Sequence record: PV295200.1
Length of the DNA stretch: 64,000 nucleotides
Source of the DNA: Escherichia phage vB_Eco_BCPEco_001
Reading direction: 5' to 3' (one strand)
The position numbers were made by a program, and so were the translations under genes. Below are positions 15,950-64,000 of this stretch, piece by piece (the first letter of the stretch is position 1; every line of letters begins with the position of its first letter). Below the pieces are notes generated by a model. It did not search any database. It worked only from the letters and a program-made list of their open reading frames with translations, and had not been told where the DNA came from.

Positions 15950-17370
15950 ATGACTTTTACAGTTGATATAACTCCTAAAACACCGACAGGGGGTTATTGA
16001 TGAAACTAAGCAGTTTACTGCTACACCCAGTGGTGAAACTGGAGGCGGAACTATTACATATGCTTGGACTGTAGATGATGCTCCACAAGATGGAGCTGAA
16101 GCAACTTTTGATTATGTATTAAAAGGACCTGCTGGACAAAAGACTATTAAAGTAGTTGCAACAAATACAGTTCCAGATACTGATGCTGAAACAGCAGAAG
16201 CTACTACAACTATCACAGTTCAAAATAAGACACAAACGACTACCTTAGCTGTAACTCCTAATAGTCCTCCGGAAGGAGTAATCGGAACAGCTGTTGAATT
16301 TACCGCTGCCTTAGATTCGCAGCCACCTGGCGCATCTGCTACGTATCAATGGCACGTTGACGGTTCTCCTGCGGGCGAAGCAACTTCTGCTACATTCAAT
16401 TACACTCCTACCACAAGCGGAGTTAAAACAATTAAGTGTGTGGCTCAAGTAACCGCAACAGATTATGATGCAAAAGAAGTTACTTCTAATGAAGTGTCAC
16501 TGACTGTTAATAAAAAGACACAGACAACTACCTTAGCCGTAACTCCTGATAGTCCTTCAGCTGGAGTAATTGGAACCCCCAGTTCAATTTACTGCTGCCT
16601 TAGCTTCTCAACCAGTTGGAGCGTCTGCTACGTATCAGTGGTATGTAGATGATTCACAAGTTGGTGGAGAAACTAACTCTACATTTAGCTATACTCCAAC
16701 TACAAGTGGAGTAAAAAGAATTAAATGCGTAGCCCAAGTAACTGCTGAAAATTACAATGAAAAGGAAGTTACTTCTAATGAAGTATCATTAACGGTTAAT
16801 AAGAAGACAATGAATCCACAGGTTACATTGACTCCTCCTTCTATTAACGTGCAGCAAGATGCTTTGGCTACATTTACCGCTAATGTCACTGATGCTCCAG
16901 AAGAAGCGCAAATTGCGTATTCATGGAAGAAAGATTCTTCTCCTGTAGAAGGGTCAACTAATGTATATACCGTTGATACCTCATCTATTGGAAGTCAAAC
17001 TATTGAAGTTACTGCAACTGTTACTGCTGCTGATTATGATAGCAAAACTATTACGGCAGAAGGTCAAGTTCAGGTAACTGATAAAGTTGCTCCGGAACCA
17101 GAAGGTGAATTACCTTATGTTCATCCTCTTCCACACCGTAGCTCAGCTTACATCTGGTGTGGTTGGTGGGTTATGGATGAAATCCAAAAAATGACTGAAG
17201 AAGGTAAAGATTGGAAAACTGAAGATCCAGATAGTAAATACTACCTGCATCGTTACACTCTTCAGAAGATGATGAAAGACTATCCAGAAGTTGATGTCCA
17301 AGAATCACGTAATGGATACATCATTCATAAAACTGCTTTAGAAACTGGTATCATCTATACCTATCCATAA
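15950..17370 (+). pseudogene. hoc: hoc (highly immunogenic outer capsid protein) with extra Ig-like domain, interrupted by two +1 frameshifts
   Basis: Start MTFTVDITPKTPTG, C-terminus ...YIWCGWWVMDEIQKMTEEGKDW...GIIYTYP match recalled T4 Hoc; reading frame shifts at G5 run 15989-15993 and C5 run 16576-16580. Confidence 0.8.
16228..16803 (+). repeat. tandem 288-bp imperfect duplication encoding two Ig-like domains within hoc (16228-16515 and 16516-16803)
   Basis: Both copies encode KTQTTTLAVTP...YTPTTSGVK.IKCVAQVTA..Y...EVTSNEVSLTVNKK. Confidence 0.85.
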
Positions 17371-21078: not shown

Positions 21079-22644
21079 TTAGATACCTTTAACATATACA
21101 CGTCTAAAGTAAGCGTTTTTACCAAGGCTATTCAGAATAGAAGGCATACCGCTCTGGATGCGAGAAGCCGGAGCCTGAGCAGCGGATTCTGCAAATGGGT
21201 TGATACCGATACCGTAACGAGTTTTGAATCCCATTACCGGTTGGAAGTTCTTCGGATCGGAACCACGCAGCGGAGTCAGAGCTACATATGGAGCATAGTA
21301 AATACCAGCATCCATTTCGTTCGGACCTTTATAACCTACAGTGAAATAATCCTGTTTAGCATACTGGTCGATATATACACGGTATTTACCACCCAGAACA
21401 CCAGCAAATACTGACTTGGTAGTATCAGTGTTGAAGCCAGTAGCCAGACCCTGTGCAGCATAAGAAATGCCGGTATCAACTGAAGCCAGAACGTTAACTA
21501 CGTTACGGGAAGCGATAATGAAGTTACCTTCACCACGACCAGTCTGACGAGCAATTTCAACTGCTTCTTTGTCAATCTGGAACAACAGAGCTTTAAAGGA
21601 TTCACCTGCCCAGCGAGCACCACGAATATCGATTGGGTCTTGGAAGTCAAATACACCAGCTTTAGAACCCGGAGTCAGGGTCATACCAGATTTACCAACC
21701 TGAGCTGAGTAGTTAATCCAATCAACAACTTCACGGTTGATTTCCAGCATAATTTCTGTAGCCAGAATACCAGACAGTTCAGCATCAGCATCCATACCGT
21801 GAACAGCGCGGAGGTCTTGTGCTAATTCGATAGAGTAAGCAGCTTTCAGCTGACGAGATTTAGCTTCGATAACTTGTTTATCGATACGGAAGCCCATTTC
21901 ATTCCATGGGTTATCGGTAGAACCGTTGAAACCTTCCTGAAGTTCAGCGATAGAAGTAGCCATACCTTCAGCGATTTCTACCAGTACACCAGCTTCCATT
22001 TGTTTCTTAACTTCGGCATCTAATTTAGCAGCATCAGTCGCACCAGCATCGATTGTTACTACAGCGGAAGCTTGCAGATACACGGTACCAGTTTCCTGGA
22101 AGAAGTGAGTATAGATATCACCTACAACGGTTTGTGTGCTAGCAGCCAGAGCTGGGAATTTCTTAGCAGCACCCTGACCAGAGAACATTGCATCTGGACC
22201 ATACATCGGATGGAATGCTTCTTTAGCACCGGAAGCGATTGGATCTTTACCATATACTGCGCGCAGTGCGAATACCTGGCCAGTCGGGCTGTTCATCGGC
22301 TGAACACCACAAATATCGAAAGCAATCAGGTTAGGAATAGCACGACGTACCATACCCATAACAGCTGGGCCAATCTGAGTCACTGCGCCAGAAGTCTGAC
22401 CAGCAGCGATGTTAGTAGCATTGTAACCGTGGTCACCACCGATTTCAGCTTCTGTTAAGAAAGAACCGAATGCCTGAGCAATTTTTTCGTCTTTATATTC
22501 CGGAGCTGTCTGGAAATCTTTTTCCTGGTTTTCAAAGATTTTAGCGATAATCGCTTGTTTGCTATTAGCAATTTCCGGTAAACCTTCACCTTCCAGTAAT
22601 GGCTTCCATTTGTTCAAAAGTTCAGCTTTAGTTTTGATAGTCAT
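21079..22644 (-). CDS. 23: major capsid protein gp23
   Basis: 521 aa, N-terminus MTIKTKAELLNKWKPLLEGEG matches T4 gp23; high-expression codon usage; strong terminator downstream. Confidence 0.95.
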   Translation of the reverse strand: MTIKTKAELLNKWKPLLEGEGLPEIANSKQAIIAKIFENQEKDFQTAPEYKDEKIAQAFGSFLTEAEIGGDHGYNATNIAAGQTSGAVTQIGPAVMGMVRRAIPNLIAFDICGVQPMNSPTGQVFALRAVYGKDPIASGAKEAFHPMYGPDAMFSGQGAAKKFPALAASTQTVVGDIYTHFFQETGTVYLQASAVVTIDAGATDAAKLDAEVKKQMEAGVLVEIAEGMATSIAELQEGFNGSTDNPWNEMGFRIDKQVIEAKSRQLKAAYSIELAQDLRAVHGMDADAELSGILATEIMLEINREVVDWINYSAQVGKSGMTLTPGSKAGVFDFQDPIDIRGARWAGESFKALLFQIDKEAVEIARQTGRGEGNFIIASRNVVNVLASVDTGISYAAQGLATGFNTDTTKSVFAGVLGGKYRVYIDQYAKQDYFTVGYKGPNEMDAGIYYAPYVALTPLRGSDPKNFQPVMGFKTRYGIGINPFAESAAQAPASRIQSGMPSILNSLGKNAYFRRVYVKGI

Positions 22645-36263: not shown

Positions 36264-37814
36264 TTAGTAATGAATTTTAATAATATAGTTTAATGATATA
36301 TTCCATGGTCTAGTTTCATAACCAATTAATCCTTCACGATTAAGTGTACCATGAGCATCTCTCGGTCCACCTAATTCAAATCCATCATTAGTGAAGTATG
36401 AAGCATTATCCCAGTCGGAATATTTTCTAGTTCCAAGATATCCTTGATAAACTGACGCGCCAAATGGACCTTCACTTCTGTTATATTCTCCCCAACCACC
36501 GGCGTGTTTATGGTATGACATTTGTTGTGCCTGGACACCACCAACATGCATTCCGTCACATCCTACACCAAGTCTATCCTTTCCATAACCATCTTGTCCT
36601 CGTTGATTTAAAATATGACCGCCAGTACCGGCTCCTCTGACGAAAAGACCTCGCATATCAGGAATACCAGGATTATTCCAATCACCACCAAATCTTGATC
36701 CAACTACGTTTCTATAATCAGGAAATTGGTCACCTGACACGGTTCCACCGTGACACATAATCCAACCTGGAGGTGCTGAATCACCCGCAAACATCATAAT
36801 AGTTCCAACCGGAACTCGTTCGGACGCATATCTTTCAGTGGCAACAGGTTGATCGCCATTTTTCCACATTCCGCCGCGCGACCAAATTCCGTTTGCTGTA
36901 AGATGGTCTAAATTTAAAGAACCATTAATAGTTTGTCCACCACGCGTATTAATTACATCTGCGTTCCACGCTAATGCTCCAGAACTATCACCTTCAGGGG
37001 CAATACCGGCTTGCGTCGTTAATTTAACTACTCCACGCATAGAACCAGTAGCTCCTCGACCATTTAGTGTTTCACCTGTTACTGCAACATCTCCTAAATT
37101 ACTGTTAATTTCCGATTGTGTTCCTAAACGTATAACACCCTTATATTCTTGTGTTGCAACAGAATTCATAAAGGTATACGGAGAAATTGCATATCCTTCG
37201 CGGAGAGTTCCTTGACGAGTTTGCGCAACAGTTGATAATTGAACCACACCTCTCACAGATTCTGATGCAGTATCTTCGGAAGGAGCTATTTGTGAAATTA
37301 ATTTTATTGCGAGTTTTTGGGTTTTTAGCGGAGTCATCGCCGTAGTATCATCAACACCAGCCAAAGCTGCAGGTGTTGATGATATTTTAATAACCCCGTT
37401 TGATGACTCAGACGAATATCTATTTTGGAACACATCGTCAGTATGGTATTTCAGTTTTTGTGGCGTTATTGATGAATTATTATCTGAGCCTTCTAATGTT
37501 TCTTCATTTGTTGAATAGCGCGTTAAACCATACTTAGTTTCAGTAGCATTTGGATACAATAGTCTTGTTGCTAATGTAGCTGGTGTAACGATTTTAGAAT
37601 TATTTGTTCCATCTAAAACCTCTTGCTCCGATGCAATCATTGCTATTCCTTTAACTTCCATAGTTGCATCAGGAATACCATTTACGCCGATATTACTTAT
37701 TTTTGATAATGCAGACTGCACTGTCGTAACAGTGTCAGGAAAATTCGATCCTACTGGATCGAATTTAACATATTTTGATTCATTTGATACGTGCTGATAT
37801 GTATTGTTACTCAT
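36264..37814 (-). CDS. 12: short tail fiber gp12
   Basis: 516 aa, Gly-rich C-terminal receptor-binding domain with zinc-site His (HKHAGGWGE), synteny 11-12-wac. Confidence 0.9.
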
Positions 37815-56069: not shown

Positions 56070-56142
56070 TGGGAATTAGCCAAGTTGGTAAGGCATAGCA
56101 CTTTGACTGCTAGATGCAAAGGTTCGAGTCCTTTATTCCCAG
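56070..56142 (+). tRNA. tRNA-Gln (anticodon UUG)
   Basis: Cloverleaf: acceptor TGGGAAT/ATTCCCA, anticodon loop CTTTGAC, T-loop TTCGAGT. Confidence 0.85.
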
Positions 56143-56143
56143 C

Positions 56144-56230
56144 GCGAGAATGGTCAAATTGGTAAAGACACAGCACTTAAAATGCTGCGGAATGATTTCC
56201 TTGTGGGTTCGAGTCCCACTTCTCGTACCA
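56144..56230 (+). tRNA. tRNA-Leu (anticodon UAA), long variable arm, CCA encoded
   Basis: Acceptor GCGAGAA/TTCTCGT, anticodon loop CTTAAAA, T-loop GGTTCGAGTCC, 3' ACCA. Confidence 0.85.
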
Positions 56231-56236
56231 AAGTTT

Positions 56237-56308
<72 letters not shown>

Positions 56309-56320
56309 AAATTTAATTTA

Positions 56321-56394
56321 CTTCGTGTAGCTCAGTTTGGTAGAGCGTCTGCTTTGGGAGCAGAATGTCGCAGGTTCAAATCCTGCCGCGGAGA
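56321..56394 (+). tRNA. tRNA-Pro (anticodon UGG)
   Basis: Anticodon stem-loop TCTGC-TTTGGGA-GCAGA, T-arm GCAGGTTCAAATCCTGC; acceptor with two G-U pairs. Confidence 0.8.
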
Positions 56395-56396
56395 CT

Positions 56397-56483
56397 GGAG
56401 GCGTGGCAGAGTGGTTTAATGCACCGGTCTTGAAAACCGGCAGTCGCTCCGGCGACTCATAGGTTCAAATCCTATCGCCTCCG
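56397..56483 (+). tRNA. tRNA-Ser (anticodon UGA), long variable arm
   Basis: Acceptor GGAGGCG/CGCCTCC, anticodon loop CTTGAAA, T-arm TAGGTTCAAATCCTA. Confidence 0.85.
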
Positions 56484-56490
56484 TAATTTC

Positions 56491-56563
56491 GCTGATTTAG
56501 CTCAGTAGGTAGAGCAACTCACTTGTAATGAGAAGGTCGGCGGTTCGATTCCGTCAATCAGCA
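56491..56563 (+). tRNA. tRNA-Thr (anticodon UGU)
   Basis: Acceptor GCTGATT/AATCAGC, anticodon loop CTTGTAA, T-arm GGCGGTTCGATTCCGTC. Confidence 0.85.
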
Positions 56564-56569
56564 TATCAA

Positions 56570-56641
56570 GGCCCTGTAGCTGGAAGGTTCAAGCAAGCGA
56601 CTCATAATCGCCAGATGGTGGTTCAATTCCACCCAGGGCCA
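56570..56641 (+). tRNA. tRNA-Ile (anticodon CAU, presumably lysidine-modified) or tRNA-Met
   Basis: Acceptor GGCCCTG/CAGGGCC, anticodon loop CTCATAA; T4 tRNA-Ile is known to carry a CAU anticodon. Confidence 0.8.
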
Positions 56642-56682
56642 TATTTTGAGAACATAAATACTCTTAGAAATAGGAGATATTT

Positions 56683-57348
56683 ATGTTCTATTACATTTAT
56701 AAAATAACAAATAAAATTAATAATAAAATCTATATAGGCGCTCATTCTACCGAAAATTTAGATGATGGATATATGGGTTCTGGTAAATTATTAAAAAGAG
56801 CCCAAGATAAGTATGGTATAGAAAATTTTTCTAAAGAAATATTAGAGTATTTTGACGATAAAACCTCTATGTTTGAGTCAGAAAAGAATATTGTGGCTGA
56901 AGAGTTTTTAAAGCGCCCTGATGTTTATAATTTGAAATTAGGTGGTGAAGGTGGTTGGGACCATTTAAACACTAAAGAATATTTGGATAAAAAGAAAGAA
57001 GCTTCCTTAAAAGGAGCTGCCGCTTTTAAAACCAGATTTGAGAACGACCCAGACCTTAAAGAAAAATATCGTAAAATGGGTTCAGAAAGGTTTAAACAGC
57101 TTTGGGATAATCCTAAGTATAGAGAGAAATTTTTAAATACTAAATCTTTCTTGGGTAAGACCCATACTCCTGAAACTATTAATAAAATGAAAGAATCTCA
57201 CGCCAGAAATAAACACCAACAAGGTGAAAAGAATTCCCAATTTGGTATGATGTGGATTCATTCATTAGATGAAAAAGTTTCTAAACGTATTAAGAAAACT
57301 GACCCAATTCCAGAAGGATGGTTTAAAGGTCGAAAAATGAAATTTTAA
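56683..57348 (+). CDS. segB: GIY-YIG homing endonuclease, SegB-like
   Basis: 221 aa, N-terminal YYIYKITNKINNKIYIGAH...DGYMGSG motif; embedded in tRNA cluster as T4 segB. Confidence 0.85.
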   Translation: MFYYIYKITNKINNKIYIGAHSTENLDDGYMGSGKLLKRAQDKYGIENFSKEILEYFDDKTSMFESEKNIVAEEFLKRPDVYNLKLGGEGGWDHLNTKEYLDKKKEASLKGAAAFKTRFENDPDLKEKYRKMGSERFKQLWDNPKYREKFLNTKSFLGKTHTPETINKMKESHARNKHQQGEKNSQFGMMWIHSLDEKVSKRIKKTDPIPEGWFKGRKMKF

Positions 57349-57351
57349 TTA

Positions 57352-57428
<77 letters not shown>

Positions 57429-61550: not shown

Positions 61551-62081
<531 letters not shown>

Positions 62082-62085
62082 AGTT

Positions 62086-62115
62086 GTTTACTTTCTCCTA
62101 GAATTGTGATAGTAT
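62086..62115 (+). promoter_or_regulatory. early promoter (denV)
   Basis: GTTTAC, 18-bp spacer, TAGTAT, about 25 bp upstream of denV ATG. Confidence 0.6.
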
Positions 62116-62140
62116 ATTCACAGTTACTTGGAGGGATAAA

Positions 62141-62557
62141 ATGACTCGTATTAATTTGACTTTAGTATCTGAACTTGCTGATCAACATTTAATCGCAGAA
62201 TACCGTGAATTGCCGCGTGTTTTTGGTATAGTTCGTAAGCATGTGGCAAACGGTAAGCGCGTTAAAGATTTTAAAATATCTTCTAAATTTATTTTAGGTT
62301 CTGGTCATGTTACTTTCTTTTACGATAAGTTAGAATTTTTGCGAAAGCGTCAATCGGACATTATAACGGAATGCTTAAAACGCGGGTTCAGTATAAAAGA
62401 TACTGAAGTTCCTGACATCAGCGATATTCCAGCAGAATGGAAAAATGATTATAACCCATGCAAATCGGCTATTAAATTGAGTCAACAACGACTCGATGAA
62501 AAAATTTTAATGAAGCCACACTGGTATAAATACTACGGCAAAAATATTTACATTTAA
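62141..62557 (+). CDS. denV: endonuclease V, pyrimidine dimer DNA glycosylase
   Basis: 138 aa, [28 protein letters not shown]...WYKYYGK matches recalled T4 EndoV; early promoter upstream. Confidence 0.9.
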
Positions 62558-62703
62558 ATAACATGGGAATAACCTGGACCTCATGATTCTGTGAGGGATT
62601 CCCGCCAACCTGTAATAAGGTCGAGCCCAAGTGCGGTAATGGGTAAATACAGAAATGGACAATTCATGCGCCATGGAATGGCCCAAACCTAGAGAGAACA
62701 AAA

Positions 62704-63243
62704 ATGAGAACATTTTTAACTGGTCCTTATCTATCCCTGATGAATGCTTTTACACACCATTCTGATGCTAGAGTAGAAGAAATTTGTAAAAACGATTATA
62801 TCCTATCATTTGAAGACTTACTTAAACAGTATTGCACACTTCGACTAGATGGTGGACGTCAATCCGGTAAATCAATTGCTGTGACTAACTTTGCTGCTAA
62901 TTGGTTGTATGATGGCGGAACAGTTATTGTTCTTTCTAATACTTCAGCTTACGCTAAAATTTCTGCAAATAACATCAAAAAGGAATTTTCGCGTTATTCT
63001 AATGATGATATACGTTTTCGTTTATTTACTGATTCTGTACGCAGTTTTATTGGTAATAAAGGAAGCAAGTTCAGAGGTTTATCGCTTTCGCGAATTTTGT
63101 ATATAATTGATGAGCCTGTCAAATCTCCTGATATGGATAAGATTTATGATGCTCATATTGACACTGTACAGTACTGCTGCAATAGTAAATGCTGCATTGG
63201 CGGTATTACTCGTCCGCAGTTTTTCGTAATTGGAATGCAATGA
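62704..63243 (+). CDS. hypothetical protein with P-loop-like motif (179 aa)
   Basis: GGRQSGKS Walker-A-like motif; Cys-rich C-terminus CCNSKCC. Confidence 0.5.
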   Translation: MRTFLTGPYLSLMNAFTHHSDARVEEICKNDYILSFEDLLKQYCTLRLDGGRQSGKSIAVTNFAANWLYDGGTVIVLSNTSAYAKISANNIKKEFSRYSNDDIRFRLFTDSVRSFIGNKGSKFRGLSLSRILYIIDEPVKSPDMDKIYDAHIDTVQYCCNSKCCIGGITRPQFFVIGMQ

Positions 63244-63569
63244 TGACAGATACGCAACTTTTCGAATATCTTTATTTTTCGCCAAAAACTATTAAAAATA
63301 AATTGGTGAATCATTTTGAAATTTTGGCAAATAACAACGTCTTGAGCGAATTTTATCCCAAGCAATACAAATTACAAAAAGGTGTATTCAAAGGATGCAG
63401 AGTTTTGTGCACTGCTCCTAATGCAAGATTAATGAATAAAATTCCATATTTTACCATGGAATTTATTGATGGACCATTTAAAGGATTAATTACTCAAAGT
63501 TTAATGGCATATGATTCTGAGCCATTTTTAATTAAAGAACAATCTTGGATAAAATTATTTTCTAATTGA
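63240..63569 (+). CDS. hypothetical protein (about 109 aa)
   Basis: Start taken at ATG 63240 overlapping upstream stop (ATGA); track ORF from 63189 overlaps the upstream gene. Confidence 0.45.
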   Translation: MMTDTQLFEYLYFSPKTIKNKLVNHFEILANNNVLSEFYPKQYKLQKGVFKGCRVLCTAPNARLMNKIPYFTMEFIDGPFKGLITQSLMAYDSEPFLIKEQSWIKLFSN

Positions 63570-63575
63570 GGTTAT

Positions 63576-63938
63576 ATGAAAGCATATCAAATTCTTGAAG
63601 GCACACATAAAGGTACTATTTATTTTGAAGATGGTATTCAAGCACGAATTATTGTCTCTAAAACCTTTAAAGAGGACTCTTTTGTAGACCCAGAAATTTT
63701 CTATGGTTTGCATGCCCGTGAAATTGAAATTGAGCAACAGCCTACAGTTAAAATTGAAGGTGGTCAACACCTGAACGTTAACGTTCTGCGTCGTGAAACT
63801 CTGGAAGATGCAGTTAAGCATCCGGAAAAATATCCGCAGCTGACCATCCGTGTATCCGGTTATGCAGTTCGCTTTAACTCTCTGACTCCGGAACAGCAGC
63901 GCGACGTTATCGCTCGTACCTTTACCGAGAGTTTGTAA
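63576..63938 (+). CDS. autonomous glycyl radical cofactor, GrcA/YfiD-like (T4 Y06I-like)
   Basis: C-terminal 60 aa [60 protein letters not shown] is the glycyl-radical domain (RVSGY glycine motif). Confidence 0.85.
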
Positions 63939-64000
63939 TGGCAAAGATAATTATTGAAGGTTCTGAAGATGTGCTAAATGCTTTCGCCGAGTGGTTTAGT
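63938..64000 (+). CDS. hypothetical protein, N-terminal fragment (runs off window)
   Basis: ATG overlapping upstream stop (TAATG); [20 protein letters not shown]... Confidence 0.35.
   Translation, partial: MAKIIIEGSEDVLNAFAEWFS

Follow-up and report, generated by a model that had tools for sequence, protein, structure and literature searches.

A tract identical to Escherichia coli grcA inside the vs.6 gene of a T4-type phage, and its counterparts in related phages

Glycyl-radical proteins of the GrcA (YfiD) type are known from both Escherichia coli and bacteriophage T4. In the summary of Wagner et al. 2001 given in PMC8683613, E. coli YfiD and T4 Y06I both receive a glycyl radical from the activase of pyruvate formate-lyase (PFL), and both form a complex with oxygen-cleaved PFL, the activity of which is restored. 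The T4 gene, vs.6, was counted among 11 open reading frames (ORFs) conserved in five T4-like genomes, with a guess at a role in nucleotide metabolism (Nolan et al. 2006, PMC1524935), and the original T4 GenBank record lists it as a conserved hypothetical protein without a note. Recombination between host and phage within a single gene has been described for psbA and psbD of T4-like cyanophages, where the G+C content is patchy (Zeidner et al. 2005; Sullivan et al. 2006, PMC1484495). Here we analyse vs.6 of Escherichia phage vB_Eco_BCPEco_001, a Tequatrovirus and thus a T4-type phage, within a stretch of 64,000 nucleotides (nt) of sequence record PV295200.1 (hereafter the window). The gene (63576..63938, plus strand; 120 amino acids and a stop codon) carries a host-identical patch of 172 nt (63754..63925, plus strand; gene nt 179-350), which encodes the glycyl-radical domain, residues 60-117, and derives from E. 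coli grcA. T-even phages are the textbook example of a virulent phage with modified bases that breaks down the DNA of its host, and little exchange with host chromosomes is assumed for them.

By sequence and position the window gene is the orthologue of T4 vs.6 (Y06I; GRCA_BPT4, P13316), because the two products fall into one 90%-identity cluster, differ at two residues and are encoded in the same gene order. They share 118 of 120 residues, the T4 changes being Q54P and R73H, and the order vs.8-vs.7-vs.6-vs.5 (ORFs 62704-63243, 63240-63569 and 63576-63938, with the next start at 63938) is that of T4. A first-pass annotation of the window, made by a model from the letters alone, had named Y06I as the T4 homologue, and this assignment holds. 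The DNA of the ORF matches grcA of Shigella phage vB_Shso_BCPShso_001 at 100% identity, and the sequences of hundreds of T-even phages at 97-99.7%.

The composition of vs.6 shifts abruptly inside the gene. The 5' part (177 nt) has a G+C content (GC) of 0.34 and a G+C content at third codon positions (GC3) of 0.20, and the 3' part (183 nt) values of 0.49 and 0.44. As background we took 51 long ORFs of the analysed stretch, which yield 1,449 windows of 61 codons with a mean GC3 of 0.229 and a standard deviation of 0.062; the 3' half of vs.6 equals the highest value among them. By a codon-fit score built from the window's own ORFs, used together with GC3, the 5' half is typical of the phage (z = 0.03) and the 3' half is not (z = -2.67). 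Of the six leucine codons in the 3' half, five are CTG, which makes up 7% of the phage's leucine codons, and all three proline codons are CCG (15% of phage proline codons). The patchiness within vs.6 therefore exceeds the variation of the genome itself, and the first-pass suggestion of a non-uniform gene with GC-rich, host-preferred codons in its 3' part is borne out quantitatively. A maximum chi-square scan against E. coli grcA placed the breakpoint at gene nt 179, that is 63754 in the window, with identity at 81 of 178 sites to the left and 181 of 185 to the right (chi2 123.7, permutation p <= 0.0005). The abrupt switch had been put at about 63765, which is 11 nt too far right, and the AT-rich tract with phage codons, correctly described as to composition, is 178 nt long and not 190. 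This phage-type 5' part (63576..63753, plus strand; codons 1-59 and base 1 of codon 60) shows typical phage codons and 45.5% DNA identity to E. coli grcA and is, judged from the alignment of its product, an old, diverged homologue of the N-terminal half of GrcA. As GrcA homology extends into this half, to residue ~20, vs.6 represents a full-length homologue that has been partly overwritten, not a fusion of unrelated parts.

The patch to the right of the breakpoint is identical at 172 of 172 positions to the grcA allele of E. coli SK1144, and the K-12-type allele differs from it only once, CGT versus CGC in the codon of Arg73. Using blastn with nt 179-363 (185 nt), we found a match in all 5,426 complete E. 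coli genomes, always grcA, at 97.3-97.8% identity. The GC3 of the patch (0.44) is close to that of the 3' half of E. coli grcA itself (0.46). As a control, the whole 64-kb window was compared in three pieces with the same 5,426 genomes by megablast. The first 50 kb matched none of them, and the last 14 kb matched only at 63754-63942 (grcA 97%, pflB 80%), so that the patch is the sole stretch of the window with a megablast match in any of these genomes. The 3' portion had been proposed to stem from host grcA or a pfl-type gene, and the alignments uphold its host origin and the first of the two donors. The 3' end of pflB or tdcE, which encode full-length glycyl-radical enzymes, was considered as donor, as PflB ends in a closely related domain and some phage annotations read 'pyruvate formate-lyase'; over the segment, however, pflB reaches 80% and tdcE 75.9% against 97.8% for grcA, identifying grcA as the donor and leaving a pfl-type source a negligible probability.

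Host likeness does not extend to the end of the gene, as had been supposed for the whole 3' half; it holds up to 63925, and the phage-type last four codons had been overlooked. After 172 identical bases, the phage-type 3' end (63926..63938, plus strand; base 3 of codon 117, codons 118-120 and the stop codon) shows four synonymous differences from E. coli in 13 nt, reading AC-C GAG AGT TTG TAA in the phage and AC-T GAA AGC CTG TAA in the host. These codons also bear on the question of whether host reads were mis-assembled into phage genomes, a concern because phage lysates contain host DNA and the segment is so similar to the host. The last codons stay phage-type and the next gene keeps its in-frame overlap, several phages have private substitutions inside the patch, and more than 600 phage genomes sequenced independently, the T4 reference among them, have these junctions in common; the probability of such an artefact is vanishingly small.

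Identity of this kind might be expected if the radical domain were simply invariant, and comparison with other phages speaks to this point. Enterobacter phage PF-CE2 encodes the same 59 C-terminal residues, yet it has 26 of 43 synonymous differences from E. coli and a synonymous divergence (dS) of 1.27, whereas the window phage has one of 43 (dS 0.02) and T4 (codons 61-117) and Mosigvirus L101 have none of 43. CC31 (Karamvirus), Roth22 (Slopekvirus) and IME-CF2 are synonymously diverged in the same way as PF-CE2. Protein constraint does not explain the identity of the patch. Hosts were represented by about 80 sampled species, with about 150 sampled grcA genes in a wider set, and relatives from the host contig scan comprised the best 80 loci, with neither K. 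pneumoniae nor E. coli itself among them. Within this sampling the 3' halves of Karamvirus, Slopekvirus, Pseudotevenvirus, IME-CF2, Krischvirus, T5-like and Aeromonas/Vibrio phages are 63-85% identical to any host, and GC3 of the 3' halves in the non-converted groups is as low as 0.08-0.29. Identity to the host is thus far higher for the window gene (172/172 in the patch) than for the homologues of these groups (at most 85%). The diverged, non-host-like 3' halves in other groups imply that T4-like phages own an old grcA homologue and that the E. coli-like sequence is a later overlay. Together with the GrcA homology of the 5' half, the AT-rich 3' halves kept by other T4-like genera favour the option that the segment was refreshed, which the first-pass annotation had offered beside acquisition.

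An ancient capture, with extreme purifying selection on protein and on codon or RNA features keeping the 3' half host-identical ever since, would draw on the near-invariance of the radical domain across phage and host proteins. It is very unlikely, given the saturated synonymous divergence of PF-CE2, CC31, Roth22 and IME-CF2 behind an identical or similarly conserved protein segment, the atypical codon usage of the patch for the phage and the ordinary synonymous drift seen in the Mosigvirus MM02 described below; moreover, an Rfam search of the gene region found no family or other RNA signal.

Regarding the direction of transfer, host grcA lies in ung-grcA-eamB synteny and is present in all 5,426 E. 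coli genomes. The dS values between E. coli grcA and its relatives, given as 3'/5' halves, are 0.38/0.63 for Citrobacter, 0.60/0.85 for Klebsiella and 1.13/0.81 for Salmonella, so that both halves diverge among Enterobacteriaceae as expected of vertical inheritance. The phage patch falls within E. coli diversity (dS 0.02 inside the species; 0.05 for a cryptic Escherichia clade). Host-type composition, a universal syntenic host gene and normal divergence of both its halves therefore establish, at the level of sequence comparison, a transfer from host to phage, which by these distances is recent on the scale of E. coli's own diversification. Reverse transfer, in which E. coli and Klebsiella would have received the 3' half of grcA from T-even phages, can appeal to nothing beyond the shared sequence and is extremely unlikely in view of the host-type GC3 and codons of the patch, the constant genomic context of grcA and the parallel divergence of its two halves among host species.

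Analysis of further phage lineages indicates that such patches arose more than once. Compared with Mosigvirus L101, the flanking genes of the window phage are 65-70% identical, the 5' half of vs.6 is 90% identical (dS 0.43) and the last 13 nt are 77% identical, but the patch is identical at 172 of 172 positions in both phages, and equal to E. coli in both. Synonymous differences number 12 of 37 in the 5' half and 0 of 43 in the patch (Fisher p = 3e-5). On these counts the patch is younger than the split of the genera Tequatrovirus and Mosigvirus. Two Mosigviruses, L101 and MM02, share 98.7-99.4% identity over vs.7 and the 5' half of vs.6, and they differ at 6 of 172 patch sites. The L101 patch equals E. 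coli, whereas the MM02 variants, mostly G/C to A/T, occur in none of the 5,426 E. coli genomes (best match 95.7%). From this pattern MM02 looks like the bearer of an older patch drifting to phage composition, and L101 like the bearer of a refreshed one.

Patches of other hosts were found in Klebsiella phages. In the Jiaodavirus vB_VIPKPNUMC01, GC3 rises from 0.22 in the 5' half to 0.61 in the 3' half. K. pneumoniae grcA matches this 3' half at 96% identity, against 92% for K. aerogenes and 88% for E. coli. The patch has a dS of 0.18 with K. pneumoniae, whereas its value for E. coli, 0.59, equals that between the two hosts (0.595), and the phage carries the Klebsiella-specific residues LLDAVE and many Klebsiella synonymous sites. 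Among phage records, 80 are 95-99% identical to the K. pneumoniae grcA segment and 58 are 90-95% identical. Two metagenomic Jiaodavirus-like contigs, L182 and L183, agree at 177 of 180 positions in the 5' half and at 153 of 165 in the patch. The L183 patch matches K. pneumoniae grcA with no difference over about 158 nt, and that of L182 has nine variants in common with grcA of a Raoultella metagenome-assembled genome (MAG) and/or Klebsiella sp. WOUb02. Across phage records the distribution of identity to the E. coli patch is bimodal, with 638 at 95% or more, eight at 90-95% and the rest at 87% or less. As read from these alignments, independent patch events have taken place in separate phage lineages, with different donors.

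In an alternative history, one T-even phage would have acquired the segment from E. coli once and recently, and recombination between phages in co-infections would have spread it among Tequatrovirus and Mosigvirus, the host acting as donor once per species. T-even phages do recombine intensely with one another, no E. coli phage examined differs in its left junction, the last four codons are patchy in the way that phage-phage shuffling typically produces, and most phages have the CGT allele at the polymorphic arginine codon. Such spread, however, would need exact confinement to the 172 nt homologous to the host, as the 5' half and the last 13 nt are only 90% and 77% identical between the genera; phage L098 has the alternative E. 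coli allele CGC; and the Klebsiella phages require separate host events, including two Jiaodavirus contigs with patches of different donors. We consider this history improbable.

Several records carry patches that differ from the host named in their label. Tequatroviruses phiD1 (Yersinia pestis), PhiZZ6 (Citrobacter rodentium), IsaacDaniel (Hafnia) and Yersinia phage fPS-2 have E. coli-type vs.6/grcA; phiD1 is 97.3% identical to the E. coli grcA segment, PhiZZ6 and fPS-2 are 99.4-99.7% identical to the whole window gene, and IsaacDaniel is grouped with the E. coli-type phages only through its match to a Salmonella query. The record 'Salmonella phage PSE-D1' has a K. pneumoniae-type patch. The patch may tell the natural host better than the isolation strain does. 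Labels of other records also call for care. Our source of K. pneumoniae grcA was a chromosome labelled as plasmid in PLSDB, namely a 5.37-Mb replicon (CP125156.1, 'plasmid unnamed2') that bears the chromosomal gene, and K. aerogenes NCTC10006 (LR134122.1) has a frameshifted grcA annotated as a truncated 'pyruvate formate-lyase'. A 19-kb 'viral' contig (IMGVR_UViG_2706794630_000006, 1345-1797) holds a grcA with a host-type N-terminus (MITGIQITKASNE…), the 3' half of which is 91% identical to grcA of Yersinia artesiana; either the contig is host sequence placed in a prophage-like bin, or the entire gene was captured. An Enterobacteriaceae-type grcA, with a protein 91% identical to that of E. coli, lies on a 253-kb contig of the Firmicutes assembly 'Vagococcus sp. 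WN89Y' (NZ_JBQPOM010000029.1), which is probably mislabelled or contaminated.

The junctions give further information on how the patches were made. The left junction is identical in all E. coli phages examined (…GTTAAAA|TTGAAGGTGG…), and that of the Klebsiella phages lies within 2 nt of it. It coincides with the start of DNA homology between phage and host, at the codons for E-G-G-Q-H-L-N, upstream of which identity is about 45%. Only in the 3' segment do unconverted phage alleles retain 80-84% identity to the host, including stretches of 11-20 nt without a mismatch. On the right, the end of the host-type sequence varies, lying at nt 350 in the window phage and about nt 356 in T4; OES_C-2 and Shfl2 have host-type sequence up to the stop codon except for a kept GAG codon, and phages combine the states of the four variable sites in the last codons in many ways. 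Jiaodaviruses have one phage-type ending common to all. Tracts that end at the limits of homology and leave flanks and frame intact are the product expected of gene conversion or double-strand-break repair, which would be the pathway here. Most phages have GAG as third-last codon, and this GAG, we speculate, may have been kept as part of a ribosome-binding site for the overlapping downstream gene. In Escherichia phage MIZ5 (Krischvirus; 564-1619) a vs.6 homologue with a diverged radical domain (AGHHLNANV…RISGYATRF) is directly followed on its 3' side by an HNH endonuclease gene. Double-strand breaks made by homing endonucleases could trigger local gene conversion.

The protein itself is small and stand-alone, its sole domain being the C-terminal Gly_radical (PF01228) at residues 60-101, with a Pfam score of 67 bits (cut-off 22.2). 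Its last 60 residues are identical to E. coli GrcA, and so is the fingerprint RVSGYAVRF (residues 92-100), in which Gly95 is encoded by the GGT codon at 63858..63860 (plus strand; position computed). The glycine at this place is the radical carrier according to the GrcA and PFL literature (PMC8683613). The best solved relative is E. coli GrcA (6OWR), with residues 22-120 aligned to 28-127, and residues 20-120 align to positions 25-126 of the profile TIGR04365. The radical-type C-terminus claimed for the product is hence confirmed. Rescue of oxygen-damaged PFL during infection had also been proposed; it is published for T4 Y06I in the summary cited above (PMC8683613) and, by orthology, would apply to the window protein. 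Downstream of PFL a second use is conceivable. The class III ribonucleotide reductase encoded by T-even phages uses formate as reductant, and PFL makes formate. In Aeromonas phage ZPAH1 (1-1760) a grcA homologue lies directly 3' of nrdD and nrdG and 5' of thioredoxin and glutaredoxin genes, a gene order that suggests a functional link of the spare-part protein to anaerobic nucleotide reduction.

What the sequences demonstrate, namely host identity, breakpoints, transfer from host to phage and its recurrence in several phage lineages with different donors, is very probably the result of recurrent gene conversion of the conserved radical domain from host to phage, each patch then drifting to AT. 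The phage lineage would long have carried its own full-length grcA homologue, with conservation of the C-terminal radical domain holding even diverged phage alleles at about 80% DNA identity to host grcA. In the infected cell, a tract of the chromosomal grcA would be copied into the phage gene by homologous recombination or double-strand-break repair, presumably along a pathway of the T4 UvsX type. Conversion would proceed without crossover, so that both flanks stay phage, and the tract would be limited to the homologous part, from the E-G-G-Q-H codons to a few codons before the stop. The patch would afterwards drift toward the AT-rich phage composition until the next conversion, and 63754-63925 in the window would be a fresh, unaltered copy of an E. 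coli allele. The patches would have spread by selection or by conversion pressure alone. Once made from early or middle phage transcripts after infection, the 120-aa protein would receive a radical on Gly95 from the host radical-SAM activase PflA and dock on host PFL cleaved by oxygen at its radical glycine, restoring activity. The benefit for the phage might be a continued supply of acetyl-CoA, ATP and formate in the microaerobic gut.

A number of observations weigh against this account. The recombination event is seen only through sequence patterns, and its pathway is deduced from them. T4-type phages degrade host DNA and use hydroxymethyl-cytosine (hmC), and exchange with the host should therefore be rare. 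Host events may have been fewer, with passage from phage to phage accounting in part for the identical patch of Tequatrovirus and Mosigvirus. The L182 patch lacks an exact donor match, the best being the Raoultella MAG at 91%. Among the roughly 150 sampled host grcA genes, no recent patch was detectable in Karamvirus, Slopekvirus, Pseudotevenvirus, Krischvirus, T5-like or Aeromonas/Vibrio phages, and the 3' halves of the first five groups are only 72-85% identical to any sampled host. No phage counterpart of a Salmonella-type patch was found when Salmonella grcA was compared with the phage records by blastn and megablast, three records at 90-95% by blastn having no match of at least 90% by megablast; the pattern is thus not automatic. 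Finally, while size and domain, fingerprint and N-terminal homology place the protein in the GrcA/YfiD family (TIGR04365, IPR011140), its TIGR04365 score of 154.9 bits is below the NCBIfam equivalog cut-off of 170 (E. coli GrcA 234) because the N-terminal 59 residues are diverged; this cut-off is a naming threshold, and RefSeq and UniProt still name the T4 orthologue GrcA.

Beyond recurrent conversion as such, we put forward a stronger proposal with some hesitation, as one that falls somewhat short of an even chance. The radical-domain half of vs.6 would be a standing hot spot of ongoing host-to-phage conversion in hmC-containing T-even phages that degrade host DNA, the host copy, at hand in each infection, overwriting the phage sequence faster than mutation erodes it, and selection may favour a match to the PflA/PflB interface of the current host. 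The Klebsiella residues LLDAVE borne by Klebsiella phages are cited for this matching.

As to the surroundings of the gene, vs.6 is preceded by nudE-like, lysozyme e, denV, vs.8-like and vs.7-like genes, and its position within the denV-regB block is kept. The ATG of the vs.5-like gene (63938-63940) overlaps the vs.6 stop codon, as seen in the sequence and in the annotation of the identical phage. A GAGG motif resembling a Shine-Dalgarno sequence, read off the sequence at 63568..63571 (plus strand), lies 4 nt 5' of the ATG and overlaps the stop codon of the vs.7-like gene; it is a putative Shine-Dalgarno element of vs.6. A scan of 62000-64000 for promoters and terminators gave no signal above chance. 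Lysozyme e (61587-62081) is directly followed by denV (62141-62557), ipIII and ipII, which lie between them in T4, being absent at this position. The gap of 146 nt between denV and the vs.8-like ORF (62558-62703) has a local GC of 0.48-0.50 in 90-nt windows, with neither an Rfam match nor a promoter signal above chance. The vs.8-like ORF encodes 179 amino acids here and 219 in T4. Elsewhere in the window, stretches as GC-rich as the grcA patch occur at 16226-16457, 21093-22479 and 36700-36913, and none of them matches E. coli DNA. The second lies in a minus-strand ORF of 521 amino acids (21079-22644), the length of the T4 major capsid protein gp23, and its GC may stem from the codon bias that goes with high expression. 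At 56070-57428, eight clustered tRNA genes (Gln, Leu, Gly, Pro, Ser, Thr, a CAT-anticodon tRNA and Arg), as in T4, explain two further GC-rich windows.

Neither the gene nor its name or biochemical role is new, and the value of the case lies in the evolutionary mechanism. In the literature searched we found no report of the host-copied patch, of its identity with host DNA or of its recurrence, although an earlier remark is possible, since the 2003 T4 genome review was outside the search. The sole E. coli tract in 64 kb, common to genera that are otherwise 30% diverged, together with the Klebsiella- and Raoultella-type patches, shows that homologous exchange with the host chromosome recurs in nature. 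The vs.6 patch could serve as an assay of the rate and genetic requirements of recombination between virulent phage and host chromosome. If the hot-spot proposal is true, the patch would be a molecular record of the recent natural host; as a marker for host prediction, it is to be read with the fact that Tequatroviruses from Yersinia, Citrobacter, Hafnia or Salmonella still carry the E. coli patch. For annotation, the case cautions that host-like segments in phage genomes are not necessarily contamination.

Compared with the systems described so far, the closest is T4 vs.6/Y06I itself, which has the same host-identical patch with no synonymous difference from E. coli in codons 61-117; it differs in the length of the host-type tract, which runs to about nt 356 there and to nt 350 here, and in having ipII and ipIII between e and denV, which the window phage lacks. 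E. coli GrcA (YfiD; 6OWR; TIGR04365) is likewise a small stand-alone Gly_radical protein, with which the last 60 residues and 172 nt are identical and homology reaches residue ~20. The N-terminal 59 residues of the phage protein, however, are only distantly similar, this protein is seven residues shorter with gaps in the alignment, and the window gene lies in an operon of a virulent phage and not beside ung. In T4 marker rescue and insertion-substitution, a laboratory technique, short homologous segments are copied from resident non-phage DNA with the flanks undisturbed. The outcome is the same as for the vs.6 patch, but the laboratory donors are plasmid-borne and perfectly homologous phage DNA, whereas here the donor would be a chromosomal single-copy gene, about 80% identical at first, in nature. 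In kind, the phenomenon is known from the psbA and psbD mosaics of cyanophages, of which the vs.6 case is therefore another instance: both concern a host-derived metabolic gene with statistically supported intragenic exchange with the host and patchy G+C content, and amelioration toward phage composition has been discussed there too (PMC1484495). The present case differs from them in the gene, the enteric hosts and the classical hmC-containing T-even phages, and what it adds is a perfect copy of 172/172 with sharp ends at the limits of homology, patches whose donors can be named (E. coli, K. pneumoniae and Raoultella-like) and evidence of repeated refreshing.

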